Of a DNA stretch of 64,000 nt, positions 6,198-25,922 are shown in pieces (position 1 is the first letter of the stretch; every line of letters starts with the position of its first letter). The notes beneath the pieces are model-generated. The model saw only the letters and a list, made by a program, of their open reading frames with translations. It had not been told where the DNA came from and ran no database searches. The stretch comes from an uncultured Actinomycetota bacterium (lineage in GTDB: Bacteria; Actinomycetota; Actinomycetes; CAVWCF01): positions 800,001 to 864,000 of the forward strand of contig CAVWCF010000001.1 of NCBI GenBank assembly GCA_963753435.1, in the 5' to 3' direction. The position numbers and the translations under genes are program-made.

Positions 6198-6272
6198 GCG
6201 GGTGTAGCTCAATGGCTAGAGCCCCAGCCTTCCAAGCTGGATATGCGGGTTCGATTCCCGTCACCCGCTCCA
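6198..6272 (+). tRNA. tRNA-Gly (TCC)
   Basis: GCGGGTG acceptor stem, anticodon arm CCAGC-CTTCCAA-GCTGG, GTTCGATTC T-loop, CCA end. Confidence 0.97.
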
Positions 6273-7135: not shown

Positions 7136-7174
7136 GCCTCCGCGATCAGCCGGACCGACCAGGAACGCCCTAGG

Positions 7175-7700
7175 TCAAAGGCGGCGGTGCAGGACCAGTA
7201 GGTCGGCGTACGTGCCGTCCGGCCGGCGGAAGCCGTCGGGCACCCGGCCGATCTCGGCGAATCCCAGGGAACTCCAGAGTCCAACCGCGCGGGTTATCGG
7301 CCACGACCGCGTTGAACTGCATGGCCAGGTAGCCCAGTTCGCCGGCGCGACTCAGGATGCGCTCGGCGAGTGCCCGACCGATGCCCTGACCGGCGGCGGT
7401 CGGGTCGACCATGAAGGCCGCGTGCGCCACATGGCTGCCCTGGCCGGGTTGATTGGGCTTCAACACCGCCGACCCGACGACGCTCCCCGCAGATTCGGCC
7501 ACCCATACTTCGGCCGGCGGCGGGAGCATCCACAAGTCACGGGCTTGCGGCTCATCGGTTTGCGGCGCCCACGTGTACGTGCTTGCAGCGGCCACGATCT
7601 TGTGCCAGAACGGCCAGATCTCCGCCCAGTCCTGGGGGATCGCCGGACGCAGAACCAACCCTTCGCCCTGAGCGCCCGCGACATCTCCGGCTGGACTCAA
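7175..7700 (-). pseudogene. GNAT family N-acetyltransferase with a 1-nt frameshift (pseudogene or sequencing error)
   Basis: Motif A GQGIGRAL and MQFNAVVADNP in one frame; the expected C-terminus [37 protein letters not shown] continues in another frame after AAC-CCG-C-GCG (~7290). Confidence 0.82.
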
Positions 7701-7853: not shown

Positions 7854-8411
7854 TCAGCTGACCAGCGTGGCCGGGTCCACGTCCGGCGGGATCAGCACCG
7901 CGTCGATGCCGTGGATGACGCCGTTGGACGCCTCGATGTCCGGGGCGACGACGGTCGCACCGTTGACCTGCACACCGTCGGCGGTGCTCAACGTCACCGT
8001 CTGGCCCTCAACGGTGGCGACGTCTCCGTCGGTCACCTGGTCAGAGGTCACCGCGCCGGGCACGACGTGGTAGGTGAGGATCTTCACCAAGACCGCCTGG
8101 TTCTCCGGCAGCAGTAGCGCGTCCAGGACGCCGGCAGGCAATGCGTCAAACGCGGCATTGTCCGGCGCGAATACGGTGAACGGACCGTCGCCGTTCAGAG
8201 TGTCAACCAGGCCCGCAGCCTCAATGGCGGCGACCAGGGTGGAGTAGTCCTCCGCACCGGACGCAACCTCGACGATGGTGCCGGCGTCAGTTGCCGGGGC
8301 CTCGGCGGTGGGGCTGGGGCTGCTCGCAGCGTCGTCGTCACTGTCGCTGGAACATCCGGTAAGTACCAGGCCGGCAGCGACAGCTGCCACGCCCAACAGT
8401 CGCATTCTCAT
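7854..8411 (-). CDS. Fasciclin (FAS1) domain lipoprotein, MPT70/MPT83-like
   Basis: Lipobox LTGC; FAS1 H1 motif GPFTVFAPDNAAF, LTYHVV, H2 motif ASNGVIHGIDAVLIP; AAGGAG RBS. Confidence 0.93.
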   Translation of the reverse strand: MRMRLLGVAAVAAGLVLTGCSSDSDDDAASSPSPTAEAPATDAGTIVEVASGAEDYSTLVAAIEAAGLVDTLNGDGPFTVFAPDNAAFDALPAGVLDALLLPENQAVLVKILTYHVVPGAVTSDQVTDGDVATVEGQTVTLSTADGVQVNGATVVAPDIEASNGVIHGIDAVLIPPDVDPATLVS

Positions 8412-8566
8412 GGTGGCTCCTTAAGAAGTCCTCCGCGGCGATCGCGGTCATTGGGTCTTTCCCCCATGGCACCGCGTTTGGATGCACCCCGATGCAAATT
8501 GCTTGGCCGCTGATTGTTCGGCCCGCCCGGGATGCGGTCTCGGTCCCGATACGGCACAGTGGTTTC

Positions 8567-9499
8567 ATGTTCAAGAACTTCTGGTACGCCGTTGAGTTCT
8601 CCAAGGTCGTCAAGCCCGCCGGGAAGCCCGTCCCGGTCAGGTGCCTTGCGCAGGACTTCTCCCTGGCGCGCCTGCCCAGCGGTCAGGTACTCGCGTGGAA
8701 CGTGGACCGTCCCGCCAACGAGTTGCTGCCCGTCACGGAGAAGTACGGCTTCGTTTGGATCTTCCTCGGCGACCCGGACTTCCCGGTCGACCAGCGGCCG
8801 CCGATCCCGGATTGGCCGGAATGGGACGACCCCGCCTTCGCCGGCCACAACGTGACCGGCGAGTGGCTCTGGAACGCCGGCGTGGAACGAATCGTGGAGA
8901 ACGGCGTTGACGTCGCCCACACGCCGTTCGTGCACGCGGGTCAGTTCGGCAACCCGAAGCGACCAGAAGTTCCCGAGTACGAGGTCATCACCACCGACTG
9001 GAGCGGCGAACTGACTGTCGCGCTGCACCCGCCTGCGCCCAAGGGTGTCTTCTCCGTGGTCAGCAAGCGCGGCGATCTGGACAACCGTCCGCCAGTGGTC
9101 ACGAGCACCGCTTGGTTCCTACCCAACCTGATTCGGTTGAAGGTGCGACTGCCCTTCGGTGAGTTGTGCCTTTACGACACCAACATCCCGATCGACAAGA
9201 CGACGACCCTCACCAAGTTCGTCTCGCTGCGTTCCTTCTTCACCGGCAAGTGGGCCGACCGGGATGCGTTGCGGCGCGTCTACCCGATCTTCAAGAGCGA
9301 TGCCGCGGTGGTCGAGGCGCAGCGACCAGAACTCCTGCCGTTCGACCTTTCGGCGGAGTTGCACGTTCGTTCCGACCGCATGGCCATCAGCTACCGCAAA
9401 CGGCGGCAGGAACTCCTTGAGGCCGGCTGGGGACACGCGGACACCGACCGCTACCTGGGGTCGACCTTGGCGCTGGAGGCGGCAGACTCCGTGGCATGA
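8567..9499 (+). CDS. Rieske oxygenase alpha-subunit homologue (VanA/PaO/CAO-like) lacking the Rieske [2Fe-2S] ligand motifs
   Basis: N-terminal KNFWYAV and PVTEKYGFVWIFLG flank the Rieske domain but CxH and CxxH are absent; mononuclear Fe motif ENGVDVAHTPFVH, distal IFKSDAAVVEAQ and ELHVRSDRMAISYR are retained. Confidence 0.85.
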   Translation: MFKNFWYAVEFSKVVKPAGKPVPVRCLAQDFSLARLPSGQVLAWNVDRPANELLPVTEKYGFVWIFLGDPDFPVDQRPPIPDWPEWDDPAFAGHNVTGEWLWNAGVERIVENGVDVAHTPFVHAGQFGNPKRPEVPEYEVITTDWSGELTVALHPPAPKGVFSVVSKRGDLDNRPPVVTSTAWFLPNLIRLKVRLPFGELCLYDTNIPIDKTTTLTKFVSLRSFFTGKWADRDALRRVYPIFKSDAAVVEAQRPELLPFDLSAELHVRSDRMAISYRKRRQELLEAGWGHADTDRYLGSTLALEAADSVA

Positions 9500-10215
9500 C
9501 GGAGTCGCCGGTGGTTACCGGCTCACTGCTCTTCGAGCTCGCTGACCGGTTGCGGGATCGGCTGGTCGGCAGGGTTAACGGACAGGCCAGCCCGGAAGGC
9601 TTCGCGCTGCACCTGGCCGACGGCACGACTATCGGGTCCGTCGAAGTGTGGCGCTCTGATCAGGTCCGGATAGCCGTAGAGGTCCGATTGGCCGACCCGG
9701 TGCGCGGCCTAGCGGCGTCCATGCTGCACGCGTTCTCGCCGCGGTCGTCACAGTCGCCGCATCTCGTGTGCGACATGGCGCTGCTCGGCCACAAACTCGC
9801 TGTCGGCGCGGACTTGGTACCGCGAACCGACCCGGCCGACACCCCAGAGTGGGCAACACAGGTCTGGGGACCATTGCTGCCCGCCCACGAGCTCTACCTG
9901 GCCACCCCGGGGGTGCGCACGACCACGGATGTAAGCGCGCGGTTGCGATGGCTGTGTTCGCCGTGGCTGATAACCACTTCCCAAGGCTTCGAAAACACCG
10001 ACGCCGCCGAGCGCATTCTGGAAGCTCTCATCGACCGATTCGCCGAGCTCAGTGGGCCCCCCGGGCCTTCCGCCGATGCCCTGTGGGCGGACCGCGATCG
10101 TCGCTACCTGGCGGCACTGTTCGCCGAAGAAACCGACCCTGTTTGGGAAGTCATGTCCGAACTGATCGGAGAGCCCACCCGCGACCGCCTGGTCTCGCTC
10201 ATGGTCGACGGCTGA
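9496..10215 (+). CDS. Red chlorophyll catabolite reductase / ferredoxin-dependent bilin reductase-like protein
   Basis: RCCR-type motifs PHLVCD, DLVPRTD, RxxxSPW, RDxxY...ETDPVW...LIG; ATGA overlap with the upstream gene. Confidence 0.62.
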   Translation: MTESPVVTGSLLFELADRLRDRLVGRVNGQASPEGFALHLADGTTIGSVEVWRSDQVRIAVEVRLADPVRGLAASMLHAFSPRSSQSPHLVCDMALLGHKLAVGADLVPRTDPADTPEWATQVWGPLLPAHELYLATPGVRTTTDVSARLRWLCSPWLITTSQGFENTDAAERILEALIDRFAELSGPPGPSADALWADRDRRYLAALFAEETDPVWEVMSELIGEPTRDRLVSLMVDG

Positions 10216-10268: not shown

Positions 10269-11495
10269 ATGAGCCCCGTTCTGCGTGCAGCAACGGCCGC
10301 GGACCTGCCGGCCATCCGGTCAGTTGACGAGTTCGCGTTCGGCACCGAGATCCCCGACAGTGTTTGGACGGCGTGGACCGAGGCGTTCCCGGTTGCCAGG
10401 GCATACGTTGCCGAGTCGGACGGCACCATCGTCGGCCAGACCGCGTCGCACCGGTTCCAGATGTCCGTCCCCGGCGGCTGGGTCCCCACGGCCGGTGTCA
10501 CTTTCGTGGCAGTGCATCCGCTGCACCGACGCCAAGGCTTGTTGCGCGCCCTGATGACGCGCCAGCTGACCGAACTAGCCGCTGCGGGAGAGCCGATCGC
10601 ACTGCTCTGGGCCTCCGAGCCCGCCATCTACGGCCGCTACGGCTTCGGGCCGGCGGCTGAGCACCTTGACCTCACGGTGCCGGCGGACCCGGCCGCGCTG
10701 CCGGTCCTGCCTGGGGAGGAGTCCCTCCGGGTGGACACCCCGGCACCAACGCAGGCCCGATCCGCCGCCGAGGCCGTCCTGAAGCGAGTGGCCGCCCAAA
10801 GAGCTGGCGTGCTGTCGACCGACGCCGACGCCTGGCCGCTGCGGGTCTTGGACGCCCCCGAACGGCGTGGTGGCTCCGGGAGATTGCGGGCCGCGGTCGT
10901 CTCCGACGGCAGCGGCCAACCCGTTGCCTACGCCCTGTTCGCGCCGACGCAGAGTTGGGACCACGGCCAAGCCGACGGCTCGGTCGCGATCCGCGAGTTC
11001 GCTGCCGTCGACGCGGTCGCCCGGAGTCGGCTGTGGCGGTTCCTGATGTCCCTGGACCTGATGGCCCGGCTGCACTGGGAGTACGCGCCCGCCGACGAGC
11101 CACTACCGCTCATGACGCACGCGTCCCGGCAGATCGTCACGGGTCGTCGCGACAGCATCTGGGTCCGGGTGCTGGACGTCGAAGCGGCGCTACTAGCACG
11201 CACCTACGCGACGGCGCTCGACGTGGTCCTGGAGGTCCACGACGGCCTGATGGCGGACTGCGCCGGACGCTGGCGGCTCACCACCGACGGCGCAACGGCG
11301 ACCTGTGCCCGAACCGAGGACCCCCCGGACCTGAGCATGTCGGTGGCGGCCCTGGGTTCGGCCTACCTCGGCGGCCAGGCATTCGCGAGGCTGGCCGAGG
11401 CCGGGTTGGTCACCGAGCAGACGCCGGGGGCACTGGCGGCAGCCACCACTGCCTTCGGTTCGACTCTGCAGCCATGGTGCCCATTCGTCTTCTGA
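10269..11495 (+). CDS. Eis-family GNAT acetyltransferase with C-terminal SCP2-like domain
   Basis: VAVHPLHRRQGLLRALM, LWASEPAIYGRYGFG, WVRVLDVEAALLARTY, LGSAYLGG, terminal PWCPFVF. Confidence 0.92.
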   Translation: MSPVLRAATAADLPAIRSVDEFAFGTEIPDSVWTAWTEAFPVARAYVAESDGTIVGQTASHRFQMSVPGGWVPTAGVTFVAVHPLHRRQGLLRALMTRQLTELAAAGEPIALLWASEPAIYGRYGFGPAAEHLDLTVPADPAALPVLPGEESLRVDTPAPTQARSAAEAVLKRVAAQRAGVLSTDADAWPLRVLDAPERRGGSGRLRAAVVSDGSGQPVAYALFAPTQSWDHGQADGSVAIREFAAVDAVARSRLWRFLMSLDLMARLHWEYAPADEPLPLMTHASRQIVTGRRDSIWVRVLDVEAALLARTYATALDVVLEVHDGLMADCAGRWRLTTDGATATCARTEDPPDLSMSVAALGSAYLGGQAFARLAEAGLVTEQTPGALAAATTAFGSTLQPWCPFVF

Positions 11496-11501
11496 ACGGC
11501 C

Positions 11502-11978
11502 CTAGGGCGTGGCGGGCAAGTCCGGCAGCACGTGGGAAACCTCGTATTCGCTCAGCATGTCGATACGACGCTGGTGCCGGTCGTCGCCGGAGAAGGGCGT
11601 AGACACGAATGCGTCCACGATCGCCAACGCATCCTGCTCGCTGTGCATCCGCGCACCCAGGCTGACGAGGTTGGCGTCGTTGTGCTGCCTGGCCAGGCGT
11701 GCCGTCTCCTCGCTCCAAGCGAGCGCGGCCCGCGCCCCCGGGACCTTGTTGGCCGCCATCTGTTCCCCGTTGCCGGACCCACCCAGCACGATCCCGAGGC
11801 TGCCGGGGTCAGCCACCACTGCCGCCGCTGCGGCCAGGCAGAACGGGGGGTAGTCGTCAGCCGGATCCAGGACCGCTGGCCCATGGTCCACCAGTTCGTG
11901 CCCGGCCTGCCCCAGGTGCTCGCGGAGGCGTTCCTTCAACTCGAAACCGGCGTGATCGGCACCCAAGTGGATTCGCAT
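11502..11978 (-). CDS. rpiB: Ribose-5-phosphate isomerase B
   Basis: GADHAGFELK, DDYP, GGSGNGEQMAANKV, HNDAN, RHQRRI. Confidence 0.97.
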   Translation of the reverse strand: MRIHLGADHAGFELKERLREHLGQAGHELVDHGPAVLDPADDYPPFCLAAAAAVVADPGSLGIVLGGSGNGEQMAANKVPGARAALAWSEETARLARQHNDANLVSLGARMHSEQDALAIVDAFVSTPFSGDDRHQRRIDMLSEYEVSHVLPDLPATP

Positions 11979-12091
11979 AGCGGCGAAGTGTCGCACCCGG
12001 GATCGCCCCGGTCAGCGCCGGTTGGATTCGGCGCAGCCGCGCGGCGCACCCTAGGTTTGCCCCGTCGAGACGATCACCCAGGAGGAAAGCG

Positions 12092-24678: not shown

Positions 24679-24933
24679 CTAGTTGTCCAGGATCGATGGA
24701 TCGGTCAGGTGCGGTTCGATGGCCTTGAGGCCCTGGCCCACGAACGGTGCCGGTGACGTCGCCTTGATGACCTTGACCACGTGCTCTTCGCGCACCTCGC
24801 CACCTTCGCCGACCTCCTTGGTCAGCCCCTTGGTGAAACTCTTCTTGGTCACGCTCCGGAATGGCATCGGTGCGGACTTGATGGCTGCTTCGAATACTGC
24901 CTGGGAGTTCTCGGTCCAGTTGAACTCAGCCAT
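24679..24933 (-). CDS. Small helical protein, DUF2621 / PCP_red-like
   Basis: W-T-E-N-S...F....P.PFR......GEV.EE.V....ATSP pattern; GGAGG RBS before ATG at 24933. Confidence 0.55.
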   Translation of the reverse strand: MAEFNWTENSQAVFEAAIKSAPMPFRSVTKKSFTKGLTKEVGEGGEVREEHVVKVIKATSPAPFVGQGLKAIEPHLTDPSILDN

Positions 24934-24966
24934 TCTTTCGACCTCCAATGTCACCGGCTGTCACGA

Positions 24967-25194
24967 TCATTCGTCGGTATCGACTCGGGTACGGGCGTGC
25001 TCTTCCAGCCGCAAGCCGATGGTTTCGTCCTTGGCGATGGCGAAGTTCGGGCAGGCCCGGATGCACTTGCCGCAGTCATCGCATCGATCAGTGATCTGGT
25101 AGTAGTCCTTGAACTCCACCACGGCGTCCATGGGGCAGATGTCCCAGCAGGTACCGCAGATCAGGCACTGCTCCATGATGTAGGGATGAGCCAT
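24967..25194 (-). CDS. 2x[4Fe-4S] dicluster ferredoxin
   Basis: CLICGTCWDICP and CDDCGKCIRACP; TGATG overlap with the upstream gene. Confidence 0.92.
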   Translation of the reverse strand: MAHPYIMEQCLICGTCWDICPMDAVVEFKDYYQITDRCDDCGKCIRACPNFAIAKDETIGLRLEEHARTRVDTDE

Positions 25195-25922
25195 CAGTAA
25201 CCCTCCCCCGTGGACACGTTCTTCAGGTTCTCGATGATCAGCGGCAGTAGCTCCCAGTGGATCACGCAGAACATCTCCGAATCGTCGAGCTGCATGAAGG
25301 TCCGGGCGGGCGGATCGCCGAAGTCGAAGGTGATGGTCTTGTCGTTGAACACCTGCGGGAAGGACATGCCACACCAGTTGGTGCCACCGAGGGCATGGAC
25401 CAGTTCCCCGGTCTTCCACGTGTAGGCCTTGCACAGCCGCATGACCCGTTGCGGGTCGGTGATGATCATCACTGCTTCGGGGTCGGGCATTTCCTCCAGC
25501 TTGCCCATGAGCAAGTACTTGTGCTTCTCCTCGTAGTGCGGCAGTTGCTGGTTGACCCGACGCATGACCGCCTTGCTCGAGTAGGCCCGGTTCTCCCCGA
25601 CGATCATCTCCAACCCTTGGTCGAAGTCGGACTTGCTGAGTCGCCGGTTGCCGACACCGCAGTAGACCGCGCCCCCACACACGACGTTGTTCCTCGTGAT
25701 GCAGGTCAGCCCATCGCGGTCCAGCGACGCGGTCGCTTCGTAACAGGGGAAGGTCATGCCCTCGAAGGCCTGGACGCCTTCGGGTCGGGTGTTGGTCCGC
25801 CTGATGCCGAGGATCTTCCGCTTGTACCCCTCGGACTCCTGCAGGAACTTGGCGTACTCAGCGCTCTTGCTCAGGGTCGCCGTGCTCTCTGCCGCCTGTT
25901 GCGCTGCCTCCTGTTGAGCCAT
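25194..25922 (-). CDS. DUF169 (COG2043) family protein
   Basis: Spaced Cys (FPC, VCGGA..CG, NWC), PEAVMIITDPQRVMRL..AY...G, FG(D)..AR....LDDSEM motifs. Confidence 0.75.
   Translation of the reverse strand: MAQQEAAQQAAESTATLSKSAEYAKFLQESEGYKRKILGIRRTNTRPEGVQAFEGMTFPCYEATASLDRDGLTCITRNNVVCGGAVYCGVGNRRLSKSDFDQGLEMIVGENRAYSSKAVMRRVNQQLPHYEEKHKYLLMGKLEEMPDPEAVMIITDPQRVMRLCKAYTWKTGELVHALGGTNWCGMSFPQVFNDKTITFDFGDPPARTFMQLDDSEMFCVIHWELLPLIIENLKNVSTGEGY

Follow-up and report, generated by a model that had tools for sequence, protein, structure and literature searches.

Among the closest described counterparts of the locus reported here is the plant PAO/RCCR system, represented structurally by Arabidopsis red chlorophyll catabolite reductase (RCCR; PDB 2zxk, 3aga, 3agb). 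In prokaryotes, a 2026 preprint by Aliyu et al. (10.64898/2026.03.19.712979) has proposed an "SH-RCCR-type" degradation of chlorophyll a, based on PAO-, RCCR-, and hydrolase-like genes that co-occur genome-wide in heterotrophs, with Actinomycetota as the largest group (156 genomes). Oxygenases that lack a Rieske cluster have also been described. NdmC of NdmCDE from Pseudomonas putida CBB5 is a Rieske-less non-heme iron oxygenase whose cluster lies on the reductase NdmD and which requires NdmE, both encoded alongside (accessible part of PMC4408171). The two-gene (heterodimeric) CAO of Micromonas and its relatives, a Rieske oxygenase acting on tetrapyrroles, carries the iron site and the Rieske cluster on separate polypeptides (accessible part of 10.1101/2025.02.10.637544). 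Bacterial RCCR-like sequences are mentioned as an outgroup (PMC10151467) and in Nostoc (PMC2716323), and related background is available (10.1101/2021.10.07.463469, PMC12445004). Here we analyze two adjacent genes in a 64,000-nt stretch (the window; contig CAVWCF010000001.1, positions 800,001 to 864,000) of the genome of an uncultured Actinomycetota bacterium (2.17 Mb, 98% complete). Gene 1 (8567..9499, + strand) encodes P0001, a 310-aa Rieske-less mononuclear-iron oxygenase subunit of the VanA_C family, and gene 2 (9496..10215, + strand) encodes P0002, a 239-aa protein with the predicted fold of RCCR and the ferredoxin-dependent bilin reductases (FDBRs), belonging to a distinct His78 subfamily. 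The reading that we favor, and to which we give an even chance, is that the pair serves, as an accessory module, a bacterial pathway breaking down chlorophyll-type tetrapyrroles, with electrons delivered to the oxygenase in trans.

P0001 matches Pfam VanA_C (E = 1.2e-21; 78.2 bits versus a cut-off of 23.5); among solved proteins, it is most closely related to SxtT/GxtA, NdmA/B, DdmC, and CARDO. No match to the Rieske or PaO domains of Pfam was obtained in P0001 at E ≤ 1. The initial annotation had labeled gene 1 a VanA/PaO/CAO-type oxygenase; VanA_C fits, but PaO membership does not, as PF08417 was found neither in P0001 nor in the full-length paralog of the same genome nor in any of the five genomes searched. 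The Rieske motif CxH...CxxH is absent from P0001 because the segment has been removed in frame: at the junction V46/D47 (8702..8707, + strand), 47 alignment columns containing the Rieske cluster-binding segment are gone, while the Rieske-domain β-strands flanking the deletion are retained. An identical in-frame gap is present in 10 aligned proteins, and exactly the same gap occurs in nine among the best 120 of 387 gene 1 homologs. The clade count leaves out six other hits that have no Rieske domain: P0042, P0072, P0106, P0108, and P0115, which look N-terminally truncated, and P0123, in which the gap differs. P0123, encoded on a short contig, seems to have lost its Rieske segment in frame in a separate event, although the gap could be an assembly artefact.

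The iron site, by comparison, is complete. Alignment to SxtT places the bridging Asp and two His ligands in the motif E111-N112-x2-D115-x2-H118-x4-H123 (8897..8935, + strand) and the third ligand at D245 (9299..9301, + strand), with D115, H118, H123, and D245 corresponding to SxtT D161, H164, H169, and D280; the residue roles are those given for SxtT in the accessible part of PMC7293229. H118, H123, D245, the bridging D115, and E111/N112 are invariant in all 10 Rieske-less proteins, which are mutually 55–62% identical. Of the 91 positions conserved in ≥95% of 105 full-length relatives, these proteins also keep 67, and most of the 24 changed positions fall at the junction or within a lost C-terminal tail. 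Clade-specific changes are found at Q126, F162, R190, and P240.

Phylogenetic analysis placed the Rieske-less proteins in one clade (9/9 rows, support 100/99), as did a quick tree (13 rows, SH-aLRT 98), indicating that the deletion arose once and is old. P0009-P0014 make up a further subclade of Rieske-less proteins. The ratio of nonsynonymous to synonymous substitution rates (dN/dS) for gene 1 is 0.05 against the related locus L119 and 0.03–0.13 within the sister genus, and that for gene 2 is 0.08–0.20 between close relatives; both genes are under purifying selection. Cross-genus values of 0.34–0.72 were discarded on account of synonymous saturation in high-GC DNA. An independent contig from an RNA library crosses the junction (8601-8786) with 0 differences, so the gap in gene 1 is not an assembly artefact. 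Together, the identical gap in 10 proteins, the dN/dS values, and this contig rule out a pseudogene or an artefact. Recent duplication of the genome's own operon was likewise rejected for both genes by the trees.

P0002 on its own has no Pfam match and no PDB sequence match and scores below the PF06405 cut-off. Its language-model look-alikes are RCCR/FDBR clusters (0.96, with a low recognition score), which we treated as a lead only. A full homology search yielded 105 relatives, and the 131-row family profile matches Arabidopsis RCCR (E = 1.6e-13) and HY2 (E = 1.5e-8); 38 of the 131 members match PF06405 and 15 match PF05996 at E ≤ 0.01. A structure model built from 131 sequences (pLDDT 94.2, pTM 0.92) predicts the α/β/α sandwich of RCCR and bilin reductases. 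Foldseek searches with this model returned RCCR first (E = 3.4e-11, probability 1.0), followed by HY2, PebB, PebA, and PcyA. The RCCR-like/bilin-reductase fold that the initial annotation assigned to gene 2 is therefore matched by both the family profile and the predicted structure; of the domain assignments it expected, VanA_C was recovered for gene 1 and the RCCR fold for gene 2 (by Foldseek), but PaO was not.

The pocket carboxylates E154 and D291 of RCCR have a catalytic role. P0002 D93 aligns with E154 (the offset of 43 was fixed by the F218V mutant chain) and is Asp or Glu in 127 of the 131 family members. D214, present in 116/131 members, corresponds to the DP Asp of HY2-type enzymes. 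In the profile alignment, the HY2 Asp is matched by a Met of P0002, at what we take to be the position of the PcyA His. The protein is acidic (net −13), and His78 marks it as a member of a subfamily whose 18 rows group together in the tree, separate from the reductases of the operon (FastTree support 99).

We located one full-length oxygenase paralog in the window's genome (C1:1569222-1567957) that keeps both the Rieske and the iron sites and carries the sole Rieske domain of this oxygenase family there. A full-length paralog accompanies the Rieske-less gene in all three genomes that have the latter, albeit frameshifted in G001 and G002. In the window's genome it is surrounded by a ~30-kb island (C1 ~1,555,500-1,585,100; L001, L143) encoding two RCCR-like proteins, an α/β hydrolase, a short-chain dehydrogenase/reductase (SDR), a C–N hydrolase, two maleate-isomerase-like proteins, an HMGL-like lyase, a family III CoA-transferase, two aldehyde dehydrogenases, and major facilitator superfamily and ATP-binding cassette transporters. 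The second RCCR of this operon exceeds the PF06405 cut-off. Among the best 80 of 145 GTDB loci of the oxygenase family, two RCCR-fold genes flank the oxygenase in ~51, hydrolase, amidase, isomerase, and SDR genes occur in 46–48, and an RCCR-fold gene lies within 8 kb (≤8 kb) in 55 of the 58 actinobacterial loci. This RCCR-hydrolase-amidase-isomerase operon core is widespread in actinobacteria, with Actinoplanes, Catellatospora, and Nonomuraea among its culturable, non-pathogenic carriers, and the main operon pathway is likely tetrapyrrole-catabolic. The suggestion that the pair constitutes a stand-alone new system had to be given up, since the two genes duplicate, in an accessory capacity, the core of this operon, which is intact in the same genome. 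Heme oxygenase (PF01126) and phytochrome (PF00360) were found by Pfam in none of five genomes, including G002, which is only 58% complete; their absence from the window's genome argues against synthesis of a bilin chromophore, a role that we disfavor.

Six RCCR/FDBR-fold genes are present in the window's genome. One (C1:506530-507414; L142:2531-3412) scores above the Pfam cut-off for Fe_bilin_red, has a weak PCP_red-like tail, and immediately follows the genes for pyruvate:ferredoxin oxidoreductase and a DHO-dehydrogenase-like protein. Another (C1:1302701-1305215; L002) is a fusion of an NAD-dependent epimerase domain to an RCCR-fold domain that also occurs in G001; it is preceded by a divergent MarR gene, and next after it comes a flavin-reductase-like protein whose tail weakly resembles PCP_red. 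A further RCCR gene (C2:126917-127774; L141; PF06405, 51.8 bits) stands alone behind glnA. The main operon also encodes a conserved 323-aa protein (L001:8205-9176, − strand) that has no Pfam match and that a language model likens weakly to DUF3598/BFA1_C barrel proteins (0.87, a lead only). Stand-alone members of the oxygenase family are found in Chamaesiphon and other cyanobacteria (L057, L062-L082) and in Alphaproteobacteria (L023, L025, L067).

In the favored reading, the protein from gene 1 would most likely obtain electrons from the full-length paralog, to whose Rieske domain it would dock within a mixed oligomer, or, less likely, from a free Rieske ferredoxin. A mixed-oligomer donor is plausible because cluster-to-iron transfer runs between subunits anyway, as follows from the 45 Å that separates cluster and iron within one subunit of SxtT (accessible part of PMC7293229). 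The iron of gene 1 would then oxygenate a meso bridge of a chlorin or bilin, on a substrate different from that of the main enzyme, either another pigment or a later intermediate. The gene 2 product would reduce the opened pigment via a non-plant-type ferredoxin, or at least bind it and pass it on, and the products would pass on to the island's hydrolase, amidase, isomerase, CoA-transferase, and lyase. There, the amidase, isomerase, and lyase could finish the pyrrole rings via maleimide- or maleamate-type intermediates, through which catabolic routes are known to run. We infer tetrapyrrole turnover by either protein; all characterized members of the RCCR/FDBR/CPO fold bind tetrapyrroles (accessible part of PMC13193486).

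The view that the missing cluster must be supplied in trans stands, provided that gene 1 works as a Rieske-type oxygenase, in which case a donor on another protein is required. Five Rieske matches were obtained in the window's genome, none of them an NdmD-like reductase bearing an extra Rieske domain. No CAO-type Rieske-only paralog lacking the iron site was found in this genome, the only paralog keeping both sites. Both 4Fe-4S and Rieske ferredoxins are present. We considered a free 125-aa Rieske protein (C1:1626985-1627359) as a dedicated donor and found no specific support for it; of 201 genomes, 19 encode it, and many of these have no member of the oxygenase family (one of the 19, G015, is flagged as unpublished and supports none of our claims); in G001 and G002 its gene lies ~4 kb from the RCCR fusion, with unrelated genes between. 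Elsewhere in the window (24679-25922, − strand), a three-gene operon encodes a DUF169 protein, a 2[4Fe-4S] ferredoxin, and a protein of 84 aa that matches nothing in Pfam. This operon is kept in G001 and G002 and was not found in G010, G054, or the 80 oxygenase loci (best 80 of 145); its ferredoxin is a possible electron donor.

We surveyed gene neighborhoods for recurrence of the pair. Gene 2 lies directly 3′ of gene 1 in all eight loci with context, namely those of the window's genome, G001, and G002 (three genomes of one family) and five close metagenome contigs; the pairing in G002 is frameshifted, as are many genes of that genome. Both the pairing and the Rieske deletion thus recur beyond the window's assembly. 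The coupling proposed by the initial annotation holds in that the genes are adjacent in all eight contexts, but it is not obligatory, as a sister lineage has the gene 2 subfamily alone. The Rieske-less form was found in no further genome among the 401 phylum, 401 class, 201 relative, and eight sister-family genomes searched. Four genomes of the sister family f9 (G010, G054, G061, G066) are 1.0–1.7 Mb in size with two or three full-length oxygenase paralogs each, and G010 and G054 have five gene 2 matches each, a large expansion for the genome size.

Several of our results weigh against an accessory tetrapyrrole-degrading module that borrows its electrons. The eight paired loci are close kin rather than independent events; in the sister-family genomes G010 and G054, the His78 gene occupies the same tig-pepN site without an oxygenase, and all 17 oxygenase matches in eight sister-family genomes keep the Rieske cluster. 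P0001 is 38% identical to the genome's full-length paralog, and a grouping of the Rieske-less clade with that paralog was rejected (p-AU 2e-80), so that common descent does not by itself make the two specific partners. A Tyr that is invariant in 104 of 105 full-length proteins is Val or Ala at position 106 of the Rieske-less proteins, and the C-terminal tail conserved in 95/105 full-length proteins is lost in all 10; either change could alter oligomer contacts. The nearest characterized oxygenases act on saxitoxin, methylxanthines, and dicamba. In P0002, a hidden Markov model alignment pairs D214 with RCCR D293, two residues from D291, and family-conserved positions are altered (D73A, H75S, H104G, R205L). 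A Pfam search for a stand-alone plant-type ferredoxin found none in the window's genome. No RCCR neighbor occurs in the 22 cyanobacterial and alphaproteobacterial loci among the best 80 of 145. For the pathway as a whole, the preprint tested only a Shewanella PPH/CLH knockout and showed no ring-opened product (10.64898/2026.03.19.712979).

The loss of the cluster itself permits a different reading, namely that gene 1 is a self-sufficient Fe(II) dioxygenase that needs no reductant and takes all four electrons from its substrate. We regard this as unlikely. 2-His-1-carboxylate sites in other folds do such chemistry, and an old, clean excision of the cluster-binding segment only, the loss of the C-terminal tail and the invariant Tyr106, the clade-specific Q126, F162, R190, and P240, and the lack of a dedicated Rieske-only gene of the oxygenase family in the genome would all be in keeping with it. 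The order of steps would then be reversed, an equally doubtful sequence in which the RCCR-like protein first reduces the pigment and gene 1 then cleaves an electron-rich meso bridge. There is a similarly small chance that gene 1 and its His78 neighbor form a dedicated reduce-then-cleave module cutting the remaining meso bridges of opened chlorophyll; if so, this would be the missing bacterial step from phyllobilins to single pyrrole rings. The invariance of the bridging Asp and E111 speaks for electron input instead, though these residues are possibly structural, as do the full-length paralog in 3/3 genomes and the Rieske-less precedents, NdmC and the two-gene CAO, both of which use a cluster in trans according to the accessible parts of the sources cited above. 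Were the module not catalytic at all, gene 1 might tune or cap the oxygenase oligomer while gene 2 sequesters a phototoxic opened pigment unreduced. The several family-conserved pocket and basic residues lost from the acidic gene 2 product (net −13) would fit such a modulatory role, as would the lack of a plant-type ferredoxin gene in the genome. We nevertheless think it improbable, given that proteins only 55–62% identical retain the full iron triad and both putative pocket carboxylates and that gene 1 is under strong selection.

Two other explanations question the substrate and the coupling. The oxygenase family and its RCCR-fold partners could act on a non-tetrapyrrole, such as an N-heterocycle or a methylated aromatic, through a maleamate-type route, an alternative to which we assign a low probability. 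The nearest solved VanA_C relatives are demethylases and hydroxylases, and the best solved matches of the operon hydrolase are polyester hydrolases, not chlorophyllase, with no PF07224 match. Amidase and maleate-isomerase-like genes also suit pyridine catabolism, although pyrrole rings would give maleimide or maleamate products as well. Set against this are the two RCCR-fold genes that flank the oxygenase in ~51 of those 80 loci (best 80 of 145) and the tetrapyrrole binding of every characterized RCCR/FDBR/CPO-fold member (PMC13193486, accessible part). Adjacency of the two genes could also be historical: the His78 gene would be an old tig-pepN resident beside which a Rieske-less oxygenase was inserted in one family, with no direct coupling. 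The His78 gene without an oxygenase at the same site in G010 and G054, the spacing of 50-65 nt and the TAGGGT hexamer before gene 2 in the sister genus, and the varying upstream neighbors are what such a history would leave. However, the oxygenase-then-RCCR-like order mirrors the main operon, and the pair persists over 64% and 40% protein divergence, with an ATGA overlap in the window's genus. A historical adjacency, with the two genes serving one pathway or different ones, seems to us unlikely.

Both open reading frames lie where the initial annotation had placed them, overlapping by ATGA (9496-9499) between tRNA-Gly (6198-6272) and rpiB (11502-11996), and the GC content of the pair resembles that of its flanks. 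The overlap is genus-specific: it is present in three of the eight loci (the window, L119, and L120), and the genes are ~50-65 nt apart in the other five. In the sister genus, the TAGGGT hexamer precedes gene 2. An upstream ATG at 8492 is disfavored as the start of gene 1, since homolog starts support 8567. The region 8531..8566 (+ strand) is a putative leaderless promoter: GATGCG lies ~35 nt upstream, and the hexamer CACAGT (8555-8560), of the form nAnnnT, ends 6 nt short of the ATG. The proposed leaderless arrangement fits this spacing and the lack of a Shine–Dalgarno sequence, but the hexamer itself varies among relatives (AAGAGT, GACGCT, GAGACT, GAGGCT), the constant features being A2, T6, and the 6-nt distance to the ATG. 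In the window and all six relatives with upstream DNA, gene 1 is preceded by GATGCG and by the A2/T6 spacing. By itself, the pattern is no more frequent in the window than chance would give (2 observed versus 3.7 expected), and a sigma-70 scan found no promoter. Contigs from an estuary RNA library cover parts of both genes but are no gauge of transcription or co-transcription.

Downstream, an Eis-family acetyltransferase gene (10269..11495, + strand; NCBIfam NF002367) is a constant neighbor in seven of the eight loci, L120 being too short. With its own start, TAGTAA/TATAAC-6nt-ATG, it probably lies outside the two-gene module. A fasciclin lipoprotein gene (7857-8500, − strand) is divergent from gene 1. 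Upstream of it is GCATCC-17nt-GGAA, which presumably resembles an extracytoplasmic function (SigK-type) promoter. The C-terminal part of a GNAT acetyltransferase gene (7170-7700, − strand) lies in another reading frame, a single frameshift that is either real or an assembly error.

Microbial opening and mineralization of the chlorin ring are largely uncharted, and the sole preprint that we found on the subject shows no ring-opened product. With six RCCR/bilin-reductase-fold proteins, one complete oxygenase, and one cluster-less oxygenase, the window's genome offers a compact protein set for bacterial tetrapyrrole cleavage. Gene 1 is a natural case for how a Rieske oxygenase might work after loss of its cluster, whether through a mixed oligomer, with a free ferredoxin, or without outside electrons. 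Our literature search, whose coverage did not extend to most subscription journals or to bioRxiv supplements, found no paper on the gene pair or on the Rieske-less clade. The main text of the preprint does not mention the operon's downstream enzymes, the Rieske-less subunit, or RCCR subfamilies (10.64898/2026.03.19.712979), and its supplementary tables could include these genomes.

Compared with known systems, the locus resembles plant PAO/RCCR in placing a Rieske-type oxygenase subunit beside an RCCR-fold protein, but differs in that it has no PaO domain (PF08417), an oxygenase without a cluster, and no plant-type ferredoxin that we could find; gene 2 is ~16% identical to Arabidopsis RCCR and below the Pfam cut-off. 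HY2, PebA, PebB, and PcyA have the same predicted fold as gene 2 (TM 0.6-0.75) and the DP Asp in common with it, but their setting differs, as heme oxygenase and phytochrome were not found in the five genomes searched. NdmA and NdmB, relatives of NdmC, are sequence matches of gene 1; unlike NdmC, however, gene 1 has no adjacent Rieske-bearing reductase or GST-like subunit, and its neighbors are the fasciclin and Eis genes. In the two-gene CAO, both halves are incomplete, whereas the candidate donor for gene 1 is complete and has an iron site as well as the cluster. Prokaryotic PAO/RCCR pathways have already been proposed (10.64898/2026.03.19.712979), and Rieske-less or split oxygenases are already known. 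The gene pair is neither PAO nor a stand-alone system; it is an old, selected variant in a PAO/RCCR-like setting.

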